Source: a phage
Length of the DNA: 64,000 bases
NCBI GenBank assembly: GCA_019338205.1
Contig: GCA_019338205.1_4761.1
Direction: 5' to 3' (one strand)
Shown: positions 3,137 through 43,090 of the stretch, one piece after another
Layout of the letters: every line of letters starts with the position of its first letter
Numbering within the stretch: position 1 is the first letter of the stretch
Notes under the pieces: generated by a model
The model's input: the letters and a program-made list of their open reading frames with translations, nothing else
Told to the model about the DNA's origin: nothing
Database searches by the model: none
Translations under genes and position numbers: made by a program

Positions 3137-3313
3137 ATGAAAATCTGTATTTGTTGTAAACAACCTGTCGAGGATGCGTTATCCGTCCAGACAGAAAACG
3201 GCGTTGTTCACACTGGCTACTGCTTACAGCTAGTAACAGAACGTTCGATTAGTGAAGATGCGAACGGCGAAGAACAAGAACAACTCGTAGAGCAAACAAT
3301 GCTGTTAATGTAA
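3137..3313 (+). CDS. small Cys-rich protein (58 aa) downstream of uvsY, uvsY.-2 position
   Basis: ATG 3137 with RBS AGGAGG; MKICICCKQP...; below ORF-track length cutoff; position matches T4 uvsY.-2. Confidence 0.35.
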   Translation: MKICICCKQPVEDALSVQTENGVVHTGYCLQLVTERSISEDANGEEQEQLVEQTMLLM

Positions 3314-3346
3314 TTTGTTGATAACCGATTTTAATTGGTTTATTTT

Positions 3347-3371
3347 GCCCCATCAATGATGGGGCTTTTTT
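3347..3371 (+). terminator. intrinsic terminator after uvsY operon (possibly bidirectional)
   Basis: GC hairpin gccccatca / tgatggggc followed by TTTTTT; A-run on the other side. Confidence 0.6.
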
Positions 3372-3376
3372 ATATC

Positions 3377-3613
3377 TTAAAAATCCTCTTCCGGCTCCTC
3401 TTCTGGCTCGTTGTCCGCTTCCAATTGCTTACGGCGTCCAGCGATGGCATCACGGATCGAAATATCATCAGCAGGTTTCAATTCTGTTTCTTTCTTGCGC
3501 TTCTCATAATATGCCTCAAGTTCATTTAATCCCTCGATAGTATTACAAGAATAAATCTTACTCATGAAACCGTCAATAGCGGCCTCAACCAAAAAACGTT
3601 TAAAGCTAATCAT
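3377..3613 (-). CDS. UvsW.1-like small acidic protein (78 aa)
   Basis: Directly downstream of uvsW on minus strand; RBS GGAG; size as T4 UvsW.1. Confidence 0.5.
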   Translation of the reverse strand: MISFKRFLVEAAIDGFMSKIYSCNTIEGLNELEAYYEKRKKETELKPADDISIRDAIAGRRKQLEADNEPEEEPEEDF

Positions 3614-3633
3614 TTTTAATCTCCGTAGAATAA

Positions 3634-3651
3634 AGGGGCATTAAAGCCCCT
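3634..3651 (-). other. stem-loop between uvsW and uvsW.1
   Basis: aggggc-attaaa-gcccct inverted repeat just upstream of uvsW.1 RBS. Confidence 0.3.
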
Positions 3652-3656
3652 ATTTA

Positions 3657-5159
3657 TTAAATCTCGATTGTTTTCGTGACATATTCGAATCGATCGGTGT
3701 TGTAAATTTTTATTCTTTCAAGCGCGTGTTTAAGAGCATAATTAAGGTGGCTAAACTGTTTCTTAGCATTCTTGCTCTTTGTCTTCACCGCCAGATGATC
3801 TATAAGATCCCAGACCGTTGCAATGTCTTTCGAACCATGTTTACGCAATGCACGACCGATACTCTGACGAACGATAGTTGATTCCTTCACTGGATGACCG
3901 AAAATAACATGATGCAAATTCTTAATTGAAACACCAGTAGAGAACACACCATAAGACGCAACACAAATGATCCCGGTGTCACCCTCCGCCATTTTCTTAA
4001 ATTCATCACGTTCTTCTGTCTTAACTCCACCGTCAATATAATAAACCTTGTCGTGTACCTTCTGTAACGCGTCATACATAAGTTTTCCGTGCTTAGTATT
4101 GCGGAACATAAGGAATACGTTTTCGCCCTTCTTAGCGAGTTTTAGCGCCAAATTACAAGCAAACTTATTTCGTCGTGGGTTAGACGTAATATACTTGATC
4201 TCTTCCGCATATTCTCTCCCCTTAACCGCGCTACATTCCTCATCGGTATAACGAAGGAAAAGACAGTTAATTTTCAGTTTTGTCACCTGCCCTTCTTCCA
4301 TCAGGCGGTCAATACTCACGATCTTAGAAATATCACCGAAAAGCCCGACATACTGCATCATGTTAGCTTTCCCGTCACGAGGGGAACCAGTCATACCGAT
4401 CTTAAATTGGCAATGATCCATATCAGTAACGATGTTTAGCAGGTTTTTAGCAGTGGCTTTGTGACATTCGTCAACAATAACCATCCCAAATTGCTGGAAC
4501 CACTCACGAGGTTGTTTACATGCTGATTGCCACGTACTAACAACGATCAGGCGATCACCTACGTGTTTACTAGTACCGCTCATGATAGTATGAATTGCTT
4601 CATAAGGAAACTGGCGATAATCAACAAAGTCATCACGCATTTGCAGCACTAGCGACGTGGTAGGAACGATGATCAGCACTTTCCCTTCGTAGTTCTCTAA
4701 GTACCAGCGAGACAACATACAAGCAATCGCAGATTTACCAGCGGACGTAGGCAAAACTAACATACGGCGTTTATGATGAATACCTTCAAAGACAGCCTTT
4801 GATTGATACCAATGCGGGGTGATCCTGTTAGCACCGGAATATAATTCTAAGTCATTACACCATTTTGTAATTTCTTCTTCTGTAACTTGTTCTTTTTCGA
4901 ATAAGCGAGGATCTACCCATACACTATAGCCCATATTTTTAGCGAAGATTCCCACGGTTTTAGTTAGGCCGATTGGCAGCTTTCCGTTGTAATCTAAAAG
5001 ACGAATACGCCCATCCCATCCACCATACTTAAATCTTTTTTGAAACCGCGCTCCCTCGACTTCAAAACTAAAATAATCTCGCATTTCTAATAAAATTGAA
5101 TCGCTACATTCAATTTGAACATGGGAGTAGTTCAGAAAGTGAATTTTAATATCTTGCAT
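3657..5159 (-). CDS. uvsW: UvsW RNA-DNA / DNA-DNA helicase (SF2)
   Basis: Start taken at ATG 5159 (MQDIKIHF, RBS GAGG); track start 5174 is a GTG. Walker A LPTSAGKS and DECH box; N-terminus matches recalled T4 UvsW. Confidence 0.9.
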   Translation of the reverse strand: MQDIKIHFLNYSHVQIECSDSILLEMRDYFSFEVEGARFQKRFKYGGWDGRIRLLDYNGKLPIGLTKTVGIFAKNMGYSVWVDPRLFEKEQVTEEEITKWCNDLELYSGANRITPHWYQSKAVFEGIHHKRRMLVLPTSAGKSAIACMLSRWYLENYEGKVLIIVPTTSLVLQMRDDFVDYRQFPYEAIHTIMSGTSKHVGDRLIVVSTWQSACKQPREWFQQFGMVIVDECHKATAKNLLNIVTDMDHCQFKIGMTGSPRDGKANMMQYVGLFGDISKIVSIDRLMEEGQVTKLKINCLFLRYTDEECSAVKGREYAEEIKYITSNPRRNKFACNLALKLAKKGENVFLMFRNTKHGKLMYDALQKVHDKVYYIDGGVKTEERDEFKKMAEGDTGIICVASYGVFSTGVSIKNLHHVIFGHPVKESTIVRQSIGRALRKHGSKDIATVWDLIDHLAVKTKSKNAKKQFSHLNYALKHALERIKIYNTDRFEYVTKTIEI

Positions 5160-36500: not shown

Positions 36501-36650
36501 GACGGGGATGATCTCCCCGTCTCGTGTTCTGGTTTCGGCTAACTCCACAAAATAAAAGAAGTTTTCGCCTACGTCATCCCATGTGATATACGCCTGATTA
36601 GCAGACAATTTTTCTATTGTCAAGCTAGTTACACTAGGCGCTTTAATCAT
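33564..36650 (-). CDS. 7: baseplate wedge initiator gp7
   Basis: 1028 aa (T4 gp7 1032 aa); synteny. Confidence 0.85.
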   Translation of the reverse strand: MIKAPSVTSLTIEKLSANQAYITWDDVGENFFYFVELAETRTRDGEIIPVDELSWVNLGYTADQNWFEDKNLFPEYYYKFRVAVAAEGFEQSKWVETEEFQTFKTNAYNFSMMREFNLANEFIKEKFTYDNREYVKFNTDLIQASLMKEDFVFSPEYANMTNISNYIVVDENFHEIQDHIEKVCTDINRTMLAEMNGVLYLFERFQPIVKVSNDKGQSWKAYKAFNDRVGNPVSRTCVYQSKTTTYVLGYDRIFYGRQASDTRWSADDVRFSDDTITFAKVGDENDLGFDVEVFGVFSRLTGDTTKYAEAMACSDDYLWVGAKDVIRRIRLKNTPVDTVQGSPTFGEKIFDPDVIRVTGNDKAVIQKMDVIDGKLLVFVTGEVKQRYQDPTKPENVVPSDDAGVYLIGSDGLSFQRVFGNTPQEREYIQHGFSNMSTNGDEVFISHYNHHFESILPDPETAAKYELGEAVKYSQEPTYLTDKKIHQTTFRASYDDLRIWELGPQAYYNEADYTWMRRNGVRVWITNDNRPLVVYPEVIYTQEVDTSGILDQNRVNREVYDKGTVTCYLNNVKFEGFKQYASGVMFHKNTGEIIGFYQFNYRVRDQVGVYWKPTNVAFVAELQNQVREVPWVPVHYDREQDPDLRPLLNKMTPDSFLLENENFRKFSEYYLQFLSDGSGTYYNKLKNLIKNKYPREQDAYEYLWSEMNKRNIYADKNKRDAVVRFFESRKSDFYSTKGVEASYKFLFKLLYNEDVEIEVESQAGLEYDIVVSSTNIDEDIVGRTIYTPTGRANVTYLEREYEGGRLRWRVTIHNLIGRFEEGQVIKSEKTAFEGMILVGVRGKELLSSSIDYINRSRSQYTMKIKSALPVSRYANDVMRFVHPVGFGFIGVTLLTMFINSGLSMKHTETIIQSLKNYKFDSGLPSVYPDRVADLDVDGNIKIDPLTGKALYLTSPLIGEEFPVPPEYDQENSELFHGLKASERRFAMSPLFDQSAVTFSMFRELVDKRLKDNIGNPRDPKNPTQRKING

Positions 36651-38551
36651 TGAGCAATTGCCTCCAGACTAATAGTTGTGTACTGAGGACGGAGATCGTT
36701 TTCAAACACGATCAAAGAACCGTCTTTAGTAAAGATGTTATCAGCAATCGGTTTAGCTATCAACTCAATATATGAACCAGTAAAGCGATCGCTATTGATA
36801 TTCAGTTTACCCAGATCCCATGAAATAAGGTCTTCATAATGCTGAACCTCTCCAACCTCAAAGTATAGGTCCGCACCGTCGATAACCTCTTTATCAAAAT
36901 CAGTGCCGGAATAGTGCGGTAAAGCGATTGCAGAACCAACAGGGAAAGGTCCAACCAGCAATTTAGCTAAACCGGATTCTTTGTTCATTTCTGTACTTAC
37001 ATAATGGATCGGATATTGCTTGTCGTCCTTTTCGAAGTTGAACGAACTAGACTTGATTCCGCTCTTATACTGGTTTAAAAACTTGATTCCGGCCATAGGT
37101 GCTTTATAGAAGTTGTCGATCTCTCGAACCATCTCGATTTCTGCACTAGAACCTATCACAGATACATCAGCTTTGTCAATACGAGCAAGCATTTTAGACT
37201 TACTAAATGTCTGGTTAAAAATTTCCACTTCGTCGGTATAATATGCATCAATCTGATCAATAACCGCACCGCGCAACCACTGCTCTGATTCTGACAAGTC
37301 ATTGATTGAATAGGAAACTTTAATATTCTGTTTAATATACAGATAGTTAGGGTCAATGATGCTCGGCGTGATAGGGGCAAGATTATATTTTGCCAGATAA
37401 TCCCGCATATCTTCTTTTTGAACAGTTGTCAAACGCAAGCCAGATTTAGGCTTAACAGCAACAAAAGCATAACCCGGTTTTTCTCGGTCGGTGAAACATT
37501 GTACCGCCTGAACAATACTACCAAAACGGCTAGACACAAAAGCCTCATAGTCGGAAGCAGTTACACAACGACGCTGAGATTCACGCATTACCGGAGCAAG
37601 TTCACGGATACGTTCGATTGATTCAGGATCACCACCACCATCTGCACCGACATAATCACGATCATTTGTCGGATTCTCAATAATTTTAACAATAGAGATA
37701 GATGCAAGGGTATCCGCATATGTAAAATTAACTGAACCGTTTGCTTCCGCGCCCTTAGTGCTAATATATTCGATAACAATATTAGCACCAGTTGACGGCT
37801 TAAGTCCACCAATATAATTTGCTTCCAGCGCCCCGCCAGCAGCAGATAAAGTTGATTCACCTTCACCAAAGAAGATTTCTGTATGACCGTCTACGGTTTC
37901 ACGCATATAGAAAATATTACTAGCGCCAGTTGCATTAACAATACTTTCTCGCGTCCAGTCTTTCCATTCAGCACCGTCTACCCACAACTTAACCTGAGCG
38001 CGGTCAATATCTGGATCGCGGATCAGAATTTGTTTCTTCGGATCAAATAACATTTCTGTACGAACAATACGACCTTGCGCGACTTTAAGCATAGGAGTAT
38101 ATAAACCATTTGAACCTAAAACGCTCACAACGTCTTCTGTAGTAACAAACGGATAAGACGTCTGGTGGTCCACACTTGCAATAAATTTAGTTCCTCGTGG
38201 GATTCGAATACTTGCCGGATTTCGCGGATGTGTTACGTGCAACATAATTGTAGTCGATGCACTAGTTTTACTTGCTGGCAAATATCCTAAATCTTGCGCG
38301 GCTTGAACAACTGAACTACGCTTAATTGCCGTTCTGATAAAAGATTCATATAGAGCGGCGTTGGCGAATTGCTGAATATAAAGGGTATTATATGCGAGCA
38401 AGTCCATCAATACGTTAATACCAGCACCATTAAAATCAAAATCTTTAAATTCTTCCTGGTTTCTCATCCAGTCTGTTAATGTGCTTTTAATTTCATCAAA
38501 CGTAGCAGCATTAAAAATATCAGGAATTTGTGTAATCTTTTGCTTTGTCAT
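36647..38551 (-). CDS. 6: baseplate wedge protein gp6
   Basis: 634 aa; synteny, overlaps gp7 start. Confidence 0.85.
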
Positions 38552-38841
38552 TTTATGAATACCTTCGGTGATGCCATAGCGACGGTATCGCCACAGCTAA
38601 TACGATCTGCCATTTGAATTGCTTTCTTTCCGGTAACAAATACTTTCGGGGTACTGGCGACCGTAGTTCCCCCGTGTGTATCATAAGGCTTTGTTGTTTT
38701 TGTATGTGGTGTAATTGGGTCTCCTTCGACTAATACAGGGATACCCTCAACAAATACCTTAGATTGAGTTGCATTAATTATTGTCGGACCGTAATTACCA
38801 TGTCCAGTAGTTTTTGCTTTGTCATATGATAAACCAGCCAT
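38548..38841 (-). CDS. 5.4: PAAR-repeat spike tip protein, gp5.4-like (97 aa)
   Basis: Start set at internal ATG 38841 (MAGLSYDK...) to avoid overlap with HNH gene; small beta-rich Gly/Thr/Val protein with the size of T4 gp5.4, directly upstream of gp6. Confidence 0.7.
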
Positions 38842-38854
38842 CAAAACCCCATCT

Positions 38855-39394
38855 TCATACATCGTTTAATTTGTTAACTTTTGAATCTCTAGATAATGCA
38901 GCGGTGTTATAGGCAATCGCAGCGTCAATTTCATTATCAAATAGACCTAAACGGATTCGTTTTCCATTGGCTCTAATTCTAGCTTCCCACTTTTTGGAAT
39001 TTTTATTCCAATTAACACCAATATATGAAGATGTGCAATCGGATTGTTTATTTTGGTTGTACATTTGTTGAGTAACGGTTGCTGGTCTTAAATTGCTAAC
39101 TCGGTCGTCAAGGGAGTTTGTGTTAATATGATCTATTTGTAGTGGTTTTCTCGGAGTGTGTCCGTGATGCATATGATAAACAACATGAGACCTCTGAAAC
39201 TCTTTACCATCAACAGCAAGTCTCCAATATCTATATCCACATGGATTTATCTTCAATCCACCAACTAGACTTCCGGCTTTAGAACGTCCACGAGAGAACC
39301 TTCTATAAACCTTTCCGTCAACTTCATAAAATAGTTCATGTAGTCTATTATATAAAATTTCATCTTCTTTGGTGTAATGAATTACTTCAATCAT
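38855..39394 (-). CDS. HNH homing endonuclease with C-terminal AP2 DNA-binding domain
   Basis: HNH core ...[35 protein letters not shown]...; AP2-like [40 protein letters not shown]; RBS GAGGG before ATG 39394; inserted between 5.1 and 5.4. Confidence 0.8.
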
Positions 39395-39395
39395 A

Positions 39396-39965
39396 TTATC
39401 CCTCACTTCTTCTAACATAATCTCTTAACTGTTTACTCCACACATCCCAATTTCCAAAAACGGTTTGAGTATAAACTTTCTCTATTGTGTGTTCGGTTAC
39501 TACCGGAGGCGGATTAGTTTCACCAGCACCCTCTCGGCTACTGGAACCACCACTATTTCCTTCACCAGAACCACCAGAAGACTCTGAAACAGATTGGATA
39601 TAGGTTAGGGTTACTTTATAAGTATAAACCTCCTGTAGACGTGTAGGAGCGTTAAAATAATATAGATCTGCGGTAGTTGGATCTGGTAAATCATCAAAAC
39701 TTCCGGCAGATTTTTTAATTCTATCTTTCGTTATATATTTAAGAGAATCCGCGCCAAGCGAAAAACTATCCAGATACTCACCAGATATTTTAGTTTCTTC
39801 AACGGTAACGCCCTTATTAGGGCGATACTCGCTGATCTTAAACTCTTTAATCGTGTATGTGGTATTTGCATCTGGTGGCGTTGCTTTATAAGAGAACACC
39901 ACCTCAAAGATTTCTCGCTCGCTGATATCCTCCAATTTTGAACTCATCGGAAGAATTTCAACCAT
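39396..39965 (-). CDS. conserved hypothetical protein, gp5.1 position (189 aa)
   Basis: Immediately downstream of gp5; Gly/Ser-rich linker SESSGGSGEGNSGGSSS; assignment by position only. Confidence 0.45.
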   Translation of the reverse strand: MVEILPMSSKLEDISEREIFEVVFSYKATPPDANTTYTIKEFKISEYRPNKGVTVEETKISGEYLDSFSLGADSLKYITKDRIKKSAGSFDDLPDPTTADLYYFNAPTRLQEVYTYKVTLTYIQSVSESSGGSGEGNSGGSSSREGAGETNPPPVVTEHTIEKVYTQTVFGNWDVWSKQLRDYVRRSEG

Positions 39966-39973
39966 TAGTTACC

Positions 39974-41773
39974 TCACCCAAGATCAATACGGCTACCATC
40001 AATTTTAACTGTACCAGATGCAATATCTTTAACGCTTGCACCACAATTACGGGACCAGTCACCATTAACCTGATCTGATTTAGTGCCATTGACGGTCATA
40101 TTAAAATTACCCTCAACGGTTAAATCATAGTTACCTTTAATTGTTTCGGTAGTGTTACCCTCGATCATTAATTCAGCATTACCCTTGACGTTAGCCGTCA
40201 AATTGGCGTCAAGCTGCGCGGTAACATCACCTACAACATGCATATTTGCAGTACCTTCAACGGTCTGATTAACATTGCCACGAATAAATTCAGTGACGTT
40301 ACCATCAACGGTTTGCATCACATTACCCATATAATAAACTTGCGCGTCACCTTCAACAACAACTTGCAGATTGCCTTTAACGTTGACTTTGCGACCTTGC
40401 TTAACGATCAAATAATCATCACCTTCAATCTTTTCTACCCTCGTTCCGTCCGGTCTGGTTTCTTCAAATGTACCAGAAGGATGTTTACGATGATAACGCT
40501 CGTGAGAAGGAGTATCATCAATCTCGATAATATGACCGCTCTCTGACTCGTACACATGGTTATATGGATACCTTGCAGAATACGAACTCTTAGGCTCTTT
40601 AAACATGATTCGTGTGTCTTGTGGGGTAAACGGTGCTTCTGGGTCTTCTTCTGCTCTCTGCGTCTTATAGGCAGCAATACGGGCATTTCTCAAACGTGCT
40701 CTCGGATCATCTGAAACAGTTTCCTCTTTCTTAGGAGCAATTACGCCATATGATTCTAAGTTGCCAGTAAGAATAATTTTAGAAACACGGCTGGAGCGTC
40801 CTGGAGTTTGATTAGCCCATACTGATTGACGTAATCCATCATAGGCTTGTTTCCATTCTTCCGCTAACATCGCAGCAAGACTATTCTTAAATTTACCCAA
40901 TCCACCAACGCCCATTTGAAACGCCATATTTTCTAATGCCATACGACGTGAGGCATTACATTTATTATAGACAGGTGCAATTCGTGGATGTTTGCGCATA
41001 TCACGACGAGTCTTTTCTATATCGTCAGCAAATACTTTACTAACTTCTTCGGCGGTAAGTCTTCCGTTTGTAACTTCACGCCCTACCAGCTTAGAAAGTT
41101 CATTATTGATAATACCCAGATCACTGGTTTTCTTATAAATGATCAAATGCCCGATGCCTATTGTCGGATATCCTTCTGAATCAAGATACCATTTCTCGCG
41201 ATATCCCTCATCGCCCCGCAGCATTTTTTCTATTGTAAAATCAGGATTATCATCAACCGGAATTTGGTCTAATGGCTCGTCGTCTGGATTTACTGCAACT
41301 CCAGTGTTTTCATCTCGAATATAGACACTATCAGGTTTTGTTGTTTGTCCGGTTTCTGGGTTAATACCGCCACGAGCAAGAATATTAACATCATTACCAA
41401 TATAACGAGGATATGCACCAGAAGGGTCGCAAAAACCTTCTGTAGTGAGTGGTTTCTCTGTATATTGTCCGGCAATAGTACCCAGAATAACGCAGTTTAA
41501 ATAACGTTCATCTAAAGCCAAACCAAATACCATTGAACCTTCAACAATACCAGTAGGGCTTTGACCTATACCGGAGATCGCCGCGCTTGTAATATCTTGT
41601 ACTGGCGTAATCCATAATAGATCTTCGGTTGGAAGACCTTGAATGTCACCGTGTGCGGATAGCGAAGGATGTATACCATGAATCCTAACCTGAACACGCC
41701 CCAGCATTAATGGGTCTTCCCTGTTTTCTACAATTCCGGTAAACCATTTAACGGAGTTATTAAACATTAGCAT
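39974..41773 (-). CDS. 5: baseplate hub / cell-puncturing protein gp5 with lysozyme domain
   Basis: 599 aa; OB-fold-like N-terminus, central T4-lysozyme-like domain (GYPTIGIGHLI), C-terminal VxGxxxxxN beta-helix repeats. Confidence 0.9.
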   Translation of the reverse strand: MLMFNNSVKWFTGIVENREDPLMLGRVQVRIHGIHPSLSAHGDIQGLPTEDLLWITPVQDITSAAISGIGQSPTGIVEGSMVFGLALDERYLNCVILGTIAGQYTEKPLTTEGFCDPSGAYPRYIGNDVNILARGGINPETGQTTKPDSVYIRDENTGVAVNPDDEPLDQIPVDDNPDFTIEKMLRGDEGYREKWYLDSEGYPTIGIGHLIIYKKTSDLGIINNELSKLVGREVTNGRLTAEEVSKVFADDIEKTRRDMRKHPRIAPVYNKCNASRRMALENMAFQMGVGGLGKFKNSLAAMLAEEWKQAYDGLRQSVWANQTPGRSSRVSKIILTGNLESYGVIAPKKEETVSDDPRARLRNARIAAYKTQRAEEDPEAPFTPQDTRIMFKEPKSSYSARYPYNHVYESESGHIIEIDDTPSHERYHRKHPSGTFEETRPDGTRVEKIEGDDYLIVKQGRKVNVKGNLQVVVEGDAQVYYMGNVMQTVDGNVTEFIRGNVNQTVEGTANMHVVGDVTAQLDANLTANVKGNAELMIEGNTTETIKGNYDLTVEGNFNMTVNGTKSDQVNGDWSRNCGASVKDIASGTVKIDGSRIDLG

Positions 41774-41784
41774 AATTAATCACC

Positions 41785-42339
41785 TTACACATCAGCCTTT
41801 TCCATTTCTCGAATGAATGCGTTAATAAATTGTTTAATTTGTGTAGGGTCTATGATCTTGATCTTGCGTCGTTCCTCATTGCGGAGGATCGCATCTTCCA
41901 GTGTGTCTACCGCCGATAATGCACCTTGAAACTGCAAATGACGATGATGAATATCCCCTTTATCATACCAATTGCTTGATCCTTTCGGATATTCTGTAAG
42001 ATTCCAATACTTGTTTCCGTCAATATCAACATGGTATAATACTTGATTTCCTCCTACATTTGCATATCGTTGTTCGGCTGATTCATATGCTGTCTCTTGA
42101 TCGGTGATCCAGTCATGAAACGGATCGTATACGTCATTAAGCATCAGCAAGATCCAGTAAAGTTGTTGGTTTCCGTATACTTCATATGCAACTTGTTCCG
42201 GTCGTGGACTACCTTGAATGTAATATGTTTGTATGTTATAATCAGAAATTATTGCGTTGAAATATGCGCGGTAATTGCGCACAATGTCAGTAATCATCTT
42301 GCCGTTGTATTCAATGGCAGGGAAGAAAGAAAAGAGCAT
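41785..42339 (-). CDS. 53: baseplate wedge protein gp53-like
   Basis: 184 aa (T4 gp53 196 aa); immediately upstream of gp5 on same strand. Confidence 0.6.
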   Translation of the reverse strand: MLFSFFPAIEYNGKMITDIVRNYRAYFNAIISDYNIQTYYIQGSPRPEQVAYEVYGNQQLYWILLMLNDVYDPFHDWITDQETAYESAEQRYANVGGNQVLYHVDIDGNKYWNLTEYPKGSSNWYDKGDIHHRHLQFQGALSAVDTLEDAILRNEERRKIKIIDPTQIKQFINAFIREMEKADV

Positions 42340-42371: not shown

Positions 42372-42379
42372 TATTTATA
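42372..42379 (-). promoter_or_regulatory. T4-type late promoter (TATAAATA) for gene 53
   Basis: Exact TATAAATA on minus strand 33 nt upstream of gp53 ATG in the divergent region. Confidence 0.5.
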
Positions 42380-42394: not shown

Positions 42395-43090
42395 ATGGAC
42401 TATCAAAAACATTATGATCGATTAATTGAACGCGCAAAGCATAGAACGCTTGAAGGATATAAAGAAAAACATCATATTATTCCTCGTTGTATGGGAGGCG
42501 ATGATAGTCCAGAAAATATAGTTGAGTTAACGGGGTCTGAACATTTTGTTGCTCATCAACTTTTAGCAAAAATGCATCCAACACATCACGGAATTGTACA
42601 TGCGGCGAAAATATTGATGGGGTCTACCAACTATAACAATAAACAATTTGAGTGGGTAAGAAAACTTGCGGTCGAGACTTCAAGAAAATTTCATACAGGA
42701 AGAAAAAGATCCGAAGAGACTAGACGCAGAATATCAGAAGCAACTAAAGGAAAGAGAAAAGGAATTAAATTATCTGAGGAACATCGACAGAAATTATCTG
42801 CTTCATTAAAAGGTAGAGTGTTTACAGAAGAACATAAAAGAAATATTGCGTCAAGAGAAATTACACAAGAATGGAGAGACAACATCTCTAAAGCGGGTAA
42901 GGGTAGAAAGTTGTCACAAGAAAACGTAGAGAAATGGAAACGTATTCATAACACGCCAGAAATGAAACAAAAATATAGTGAATTGTCAAAGTCTCGTCCG
43001 TATTTCACCTGTCCTCATTGTGAAAAAACAGCCAATCAGGGAAATTATGTTAGATGGCATGGTGACAACTGCAAGAAGAAGGTGGTATAA
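42395..43090 (+). CDS. HNH homing endonuclease (Mob-like, NUMOD-type repeats, C-terminal Zn-ribbon)
   Basis: 231 aa; HNH core KHHIIPRCMGGDDSPENIVELTGSEHFVAH; repeated basic modules (GRKRSEETRRRISEATKGK, KLSEEHRQKLSASLKGR); CPHC; inserted between 53 and 4. Confidence 0.75.
   Translation: MDYQKHYDRLIERAKHRTLEGYKEKHHIIPRCMGGDDSPENIVELTGSEHFVAHQLLAKMHPTHHGIVHAAKILMGSTNYNNKQFEWVRKLAVETSRKFHTGRKRSEETRRRISEATKGKRKGIKLSEEHRQKLSASLKGRVFTEEHKRNIASREITQEWRDNISKAGKGRKLSQENVEKWKRIHNTPEMKQKYSELSKSRPYFTCPHCEKTANQGNYVRWHGDNCKKKVV

Follow-up and report, generated by a model that had tools for sequence, protein, structure and literature searches.

The 179-residue open reading frame that lies between gp5.1 and gp5.4 in the phage DNA studied here is probably a free-standing HNH-AP2 homing endonuclease gene of Krischvirus that homes at the gp5.1/gp5.4 junction. 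This reading, drawn from comparisons of sequences, concerns a stretch of 64,000 nucleotides (contig GCA_019338205.1_4761.1), hereafter called the window; the gene is referred to as class A, to distinguish it from a different gene, class B, that occupies the junction in some relatives. The source of the window is Krischvirus, the RB49/Phi1/GEC-3S group of T4-related E. coli phages. Over positions 38400–40100 it is 99.4% identical to phage KFS-EC and 94–99% identical to 59 other Krischvirus records found in a megablast census. The type of element, its behavior, and its host group are already established, and the class A gene is already annotated; it is a further case of homing endonuclease genes settling at gene junctions in T4-like phages. 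What is mildly new is a junction that exists in three states and includes a chimeric allele, suggesting that one homing gene has displaced another.

The initial annotation, made from the letters of the window alone, set the gene between a gp5.1-like gene and gp5.4 in a tightly packed baseplate hub cluster, and the identification of its neighbors bears this out. Read along the minus strand, the cluster comprises gp53 (41785–42339), the hub/lysozyme gene gp5 (39974–41773, with Gp5_OB, lysozyme, and Gp5_C domains), the gp5.1-like gene (39396–39965), class A (38855–39394), gp5.4 (38548–38841), and gp6 (36647–38551), with gp7 next among the minus-strand genes. The upstream neighbor, whose 3′ end is altered by the insertion, matches PHROG_1168 (5.4e-53) and is named 5.1 in Phi1 and RB49. 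The downstream neighbor encodes the PAAR spike tip (Pfam PAAR_motif, 2.4e-10), 97 residues long from a conserved ATG at 38841, and is annotated as a 294-nt gene in Phi1, MIZ4, GEC-3S, and others.

The class A reading frame is intact from its ATG at 39394–39392 to a TGA at 38857–38855. The minimal spacers that had been claimed were measured as gaps of 1 nt and 13 nt: the ATG follows the gp5.1 stop by 1 nt, and the class A stop precedes the gp5.4 ATG by 13 nt. A Shine-Dalgarno sequence, GAGGGA, at 39404–39399 precedes the start at 39394, which is also the start annotated in KFS-EC, MIZ4, G5211, and Makalu_003. An alternative in-frame ATG at 39418, which would give a protein of 187 residues, was rejected; it overlaps gp5.1. 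The protein is 100% identical to YP_010097159.1 of KFS-EC, labeled ‘HNH endonuclease’ in RefSeq, and its gene has a G+C content of 35–38% versus 40–43% nearby.

A further ATG, at 38862, sits within the 3′ end of the class A gene in frame with gp5.4. In the RefSeq record of KFS-EC, gp5.4 (NC_055757, 11961–12275) is given as 104 residues from the equivalent of this codon, inside the endonuclease gene; in all other relatives it has 97 residues and begins at the conserved ATG behind the G-run. The insertion probably gave rise to the seven-residue extension, MYEDGVL, as an artefact of annotation, and 38862 is probably not a real start, so that class A flags a probable mis-annotation of gp5.4 in KFS-EC.

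The proposal that the product joins an HNH nuclease to an AP2 domain is supported by Pfam, PHROG_99, profile, and structural comparisons. Pfam HNH_3 scores 37.1 bits against a cutoff of 24.8 (E 2.4e-9), and Pfam AP2 scores 32.6 bits (E 9.9e-8), 0.7 bit under its gathering score of 33.3; PHROG_99, ‘HNH endonuclease’, matches at 2.6e-45. A word-indexed protein search yielded 21 homologues, and a profile of 21 homologues run against solved structures matched the AP2 domain of WRI1 at 1e-16 and I-HmuI at 1.4e-12, with TEM1 (2.3e-8), ERF96 (8.5e-7), and ERF1 (3.6e-6) also found in the PDB; phmmer alone aligned the class A protein with WRI1 at 5.6e-6. The AlphaFold2 model has a mean pLDDT of 93.3. 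In Foldseek, its N-terminal part matches I-HmuI (1u3e) best and its C-terminal part matches AP2/ERF structures (1gcc, 7et4, 7wq5, and 5wx9), the match to 1gcc having a TM-score of 0.77 normalized to the target and an rmsd of 1.9. The AP2 domain, at about residues 123–168 (38891–39028, minus strand), is modeled with pLDDT above 90 as a three-stranded antiparallel sheet (127–130, 135–142, and 145–152) on a helix (155–169).

The His-Me finger core, placed by Pfam, profile, and Foldseek at about residues 70–111 (39062–39187, minus strand), retains the expected β-β-α arrangement in the model, with strands at 86–89 and 102–105 and a helix at 107–112. Asp88, His89, Asn101, Leu102, and Arg103 are invariant across the 21 homologues. 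I-HmuI of phage SPO1 is the best structure and profile match for residues from about 28 to 122: Asp88-His89 (39128–39133) fall on its Asp74-His75, Asn101 (39092–39094) on Asn87, and the following helices are aligned. The Asp-His pair of a His-Me finger supplies the general base, and the Asn of the NLR motif is structural. I-HmuI acts as a monomer and nicks a single strand, and one-strand nicking would be the likeliest chemistry for the class A enzyme by analogy. The two differ in that I-HmuI is encoded in a group I intron and binds DNA through NUMOD and helix-turn-helix elements rather than AP2.

They differ also at one position of the core, where Gln110 (39065–39067) aligns with Asn96 of I-HmuI, a metal ligand. 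Glutamine is present in all six class A copies compared. Its location at a predicted metal-ligand position means that activity is possibly reduced or lost. Among 137 motifs of the family examined, 132 have asparagine here and 5 have glutamine, so that the variant is rare but recurrent; each of the five has an asparagine three residues later, and in class A this is Asn113 (39056–39058), one helical turn past Gln110. To judge from these alignments, the substitution may be tolerated, or the enzyme may be weakened by it.

Comparison of the 5.1–5.4 junction in related phages, which the initial annotation had called for, shows that most relatives lack the gene and that its flanks are not the same in all carriers. 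The 59 full-length Krischvirus records were sorted by the length that the query spans, and 19 genomes were read directly. Class A is present in seven records (KFS-EC, in both GenBank and RefSeq, MIZ4, MIZ5, G37-3, G5211, and Makalu_003), and the different, 246-residue class B gene is present in another seven (two records of GEC-3S, W115, Skers, JEP8, G2494, and Whisky). The junction is empty in the remaining 45, including RB49, Phi1, JSE, kvi, and ECD7. In all eight empty genomes that were read the junction is the identical sequence GATTATGTACATAGGGGTGTTTAATGGCTGG, in which gp5.1 ends and gp5.4 begins within an overlapping TAATG. A distant blastn search with the region found nothing beyond the megablast census. 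The polymorphism in three states, together with a clean cassette and intact, nearly identical copies in backgrounds that diverge by 2–4%, supports the homing-type insertion first suggested for this gene. The insertion can be called ‘recent’ only in a relative sense, as class A is found in six phages from Korea, Russia, Germany, and Nepal in addition to the window.

The extent of the cassette was determined by comparing junctions in 13 genomes. It measures 564 nt (38851–39414, minus strand) and replaces ACATA of the empty allele. At its left end, it recodes the end of gp5.1 from HRGV* to RRSEG*, and the class A Shine-Dalgarno sequence lies within these new codons; at its right end it joins the G-run that serves gp5.4, restoring the ribosome-binding site of that gene. 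Both gp5.1 and gp5.4 are still open in carriers. In empty alleles such as that of Phi1, the point at which the cassette begins is the exact center of an 8-bp palindrome, ATGTACAT (ATGT|ACAT), beside the G-run AGGGGTG. The palindrome and G-run may be part of a recognition site, or may lie there by chance.

In an alignment of 20 genomes, carrier-specific SNPs are confined to 39407–39414, inside the cassette edge, and no flanking co-conversion tract specific to class A was found. With no such tract to mark it, the position of the target can only be inferred: carriers differ from empty genomes by the cassette alone, and the class B allele keeps the junction sequence. A search allowing up to three mismatches found no copy of the intact empty junction in the window.

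These features suggest how class A could be propagated. Having no promoter of its own, the gene would be expressed from a late transcript running through gp53, gp5, gp5.1, gp5.4, and gp6, and translated from the Shine-Dalgarno sequence embedded in the rewritten gp5.1 codons. The AP2 domain would set a monomeric His-Me finger nuclease on the intact gp5.1/gp5.4 junction, GATTATGTACATAGGGGTGTTTAATGGCTGG, of a relative without class A that infects the same cell. The junction would be nicked or cut, and recombination-dependent repair would copy the 564-nt cassette from the carrier. The carrier itself would be immune, because the insertion destroys the target site. The cassette would be harmless to the operon, with gp5.1 kept open and changed only in its last residues and with the ribosome-binding site of gp5.4 rebuilt.

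Expression in this manner is consistent with the distribution of late promoters. A perfect match to the T4-type late promoter, TATAAATA, lies upstream of gp53 at 42372–42379 on the minus strand and is the nearest one upstream of class A; its role as a promoter is putative. A pattern search found no other perfect match on that strand between 31008 and 42372, and a late promoter belonging to class A itself was rejected because no TATAAATA lies nearer than 42372. In some T4 homing genes a hairpin hides the ribosome-binding site. A hairpin of this kind was also considered for class A and rejected, since the fold of 39350–39470 is no better than that of shuffled sequences (z = −0.7). The single perfect promoter and the seemingly unstructured start region suggest late co-transcription with the baseplate operon, and class A would be translated from its own Shine-Dalgarno sequence, possibly with coupling to gp5.1.

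The class B gene, which is unrelated to class A by descent, provides a second view of the same junction. Its 246-residue product, named ‘putative HNH homing endonuclease’, contains HNH_3 and AP2-like repeats and is 30% identical to the class A protein. The insertion lies about 18 nt downstream of that of class A, past the first 8 nt of gp5.4, and an imperfect second copy of the ribosome-binding site and start of gp5.4 borders the cassette. The left junction of class B retains an intact 31-nt empty-site sequence. At the left end of the GEC-3S cassette, directly after ATGGCTGG, there is a hairpin, GGCGGGTGTCGATGCCCCGCC (GGCGGG…CCCGCC), followed by a CATAAATAG/CATAAATA motif that is one mismatch from the T4 late-promoter consensus; class A is without such signals.

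A patch of variant sequence connects the two genes. It occupies 38781–38850 on the minus strand and consists of a GGGGTTTTG junction and, within the first 60 nt of gp5.4, 16 SNPs that are linked and for the most part synonymous; the SNPs fall at 38781–38833, where local divergence is about 30%. Identity to the patch is at least 98% in all seven class B records and in KFS-EC, and 80–84% in all 45 empty records and the five other class A records. In the window and in KFS-EC, the class A cassette is joined to the class B patch exactly at the G-run. Class A thus occurs on two different right flanks, the wild type in MIZ4, G37-3, G5211, and Makalu_003 versus the class B patch in the window and KFS-EC, which suggests its transfer from one allele to another through break repair. 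The occurrence of class A and the class B patch in a single allele points, at the level of sequence, to a turnover of selfish genes at the junction.

The most economical history, offered tentatively, is that class A homed into an allele in which class B was already present, removed the class B gene, and kept the 16-SNP patch. The left junction of class B would have offered an intact site for the class A enzyme, the nonhomologous class B gene would have been clipped off, and the recipient strand would have been kept over the patch. The reverse history, in which a patch-bearing donor homed into empty alleles that kept their own flank, gives the same products, and homing into class B is favored on mechanistic grounds only. 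For a plain crossover to have produced the chimeric allele, it would have had to fall in a stretch of about 17 nt where homology is imperfect. If displacement did occur, the allele of the window would be immune to both enzymes, and natural isolates would supply four states (empty, A, B, and A with the B patch) for target mapping and for studies of competition between homing genes.

The diversity of class A, set beside that of its surroundings, shows signs of a spread that was recent and under selection. Each of the six copies compared is intact; any two differ at 0–10 of 540 nt, and identity is at least 98.3%. Among 14 segregating sites, nine are synonymous and five non-synonymous; as 21% of sites are synonymous, pN/pS is about 0.15. 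Between carriers, the average pairwise diversity of class A is 1.1% and that of gp5.1 is 1.2%, against 2.2% for gp5 and about 3% for gp6; for gp5.1 the value rises to 1.8% when all genomes are taken. The backgrounds of the carriers differ from one another by 2–4%. The window and KFS-EC are the same over 38729–39491, and are 1.9% apart in gp5 and 3.7% apart in gp6. Recombination is very free in T4-like phages, and mosaic backgrounds alone are therefore no proof that spread was driven by an endonuclease. In the 3′ part of gp5.1, at 39428–39437 on the minus strand, seven tightly linked SNPs define two haplotypes, GGAGTAAACAGTT and GGGCGCAGCAACT, that segregate independently of the state of the junction.

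Another possibility is that class A arrived by homing, has since lost cleavage through Gln110, and now spreads by ordinary homologous recombination. The replacement of a nearly invariant asparagine, the lack of a class-A-specific co-conversion tract in the alignment, and the restriction of the gene to 7 of 59 records are what such a stranded gene would lead one to expect. We consider it unlikely. None of the six copies is broken, synonymous changes among them are in excess (pN/pS 0.15), and the recurrence of glutamine in four other, unrelated members of the family, always with asparagine three residues on, suggests a tolerated variant. The two right flanks, moreover, meet exactly at the cassette edge, where a crossover would need to fall within the roughly 17 nt of imperfect homology.

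Purifying selection, as signaled by pN/pS, would also be in keeping with a domesticated class A protein that serves the phage, either as a regulator of the AP2 type or in attack on competing phages or the DNA of the host. Its probable co-transcription with an essential late operon and the use of AP2 as a transcription-factor domain in plants fit such a role, and homing-endonuclease domains have been co-opted in ICP1 and its satellites (PMC10448857). A domesticated function nevertheless appears very unlikely, given that 52 of 59 viable close relatives are without the gene, that unrelated selfish genes hold the same site in other phages, and that the nuclease core (Asp88, His89, Asn101) is retained; the exclusion of a competitor's markers, for its part, belongs to the normal life style of a homing gene and offers no alternative to homing. 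That class A is instead an original gene of the genus, deleted in most relatives, is scarcely credible: presence and absence alone give no direction, but the single exact TAATG junction in the empty genomes read would call for identical precise deletions that restored the last four gp5.1 codons, and class A is less diverse than its surroundings, is scattered over mosaic backgrounds, and has its nearest other homologue at only about 41–44% identity.

The proposed homing by class A at the gp5.1/gp5.4 junction can be set against what is known of related elements. Later papers credit Magnani, Sjolander, and Hake (2004) with having set HNH-AP2 homing endonuclease genes apart as a class. Nolan et al. 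2006 (PMC1524935) described such genes in RB49 (RB49ORF040c) and RB43, and Table 5 of Petrov et al. 2010 (PMC2993671) lists them for RB49, JSE, RB43, and RB16. Like class A, they belong to this group of phages, are free-standing, have an N-terminal HNH_3 and a C-terminal AP2 domain, and vary in presence among relatives. Class A forms a separate lineage (identity to any other member found is 44% or less) and is distinguished by its site at gp5.1/gp5.4 and by Gln110 in place of the usual asparagine. The IPA-HNH genes of ICP1, AP2-associated HNH genes described by Barth et al. 2023 (PMC10448857), likewise combine an N-terminal HNH-like domain with a C-terminal AP2 domain, and they lie where regions exchanged between phages have their boundaries. 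The Pfam HNH_3 model, which class A matches directly, does not recognize their more divergent nuclease domain. The literature examined contained neither a mapped target for the HNH-AP2 enzymes of this T4-related group nor a paper describing the Krischvirus 5.1/5.4 junction.

The nearest homologues other than the class A copies are 41–44% identical, and a tblastn search of the window recovered only the gene itself. Relatives were found by tblastn in 2,325 phage records. Paralogues that are 39–42% identical occur elsewhere in Krischvirus genomes, for example, beside the helicase-loader gene. An exhaustive protein search, accepting E up to 0.001, returned 110,728 representatives; the best of those listed are mostly long proteins aligned through several AP2-like stretches, and say little about the class A lineage.

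In T4, the slot between 5.1 and 5.4 of the late baseplate operon is filled with similar precision by the free-standing homing endonuclease gene segC, which overlaps both neighbors. It belongs to another nuclease family, GIY-YIG, and to a phage of another genus, and has no sequence similarity to class A. The 5.1/5.4 junction is thus a recurrent landing site for three unrelated selfish genes in two genera. Its natural alleles constitute a ready-made system in which to study target recognition guided by AP2 and the displacement of one homing gene by another.

Two other selfish genes lie close to the region discussed here. The window contains a second free-standing homing endonuclease gene at 42395–43090 on the plus strand, between gp53 and the head-completion gene gp4. 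Its 231-residue product has an HNH motif and NUMOD3 and matches PHROG_655, ‘homing endonuclease’, at 5.2e-64. The gene is absent from all 19 genomes fetched, KFS-EC included, and is present in only 6 of the 59 Krischvirus records (ELT4, Brandy, PTE-Eco09, MIZ2, MIZ3, and MIZ6). None of these six carries class A at 5.1/5.4, so that the pairing of both genes in the window is not seen elsewhere in the collection. In Whisky (MZ504878), a 184-residue HNH-AP2 paralogue of the same architecture, 41% identical to class A, lies between gp5.4 and gp6 at 3154–3708 on the minus strand. There the end of gp5.4 is recoded and the start of gp6 rebuilt; of the 20 genomes compared, Whisky alone has this paralogue. 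As Whisky also carries class B at 5.1/5.4, a selfish gene stands on each side of its gp5.4.
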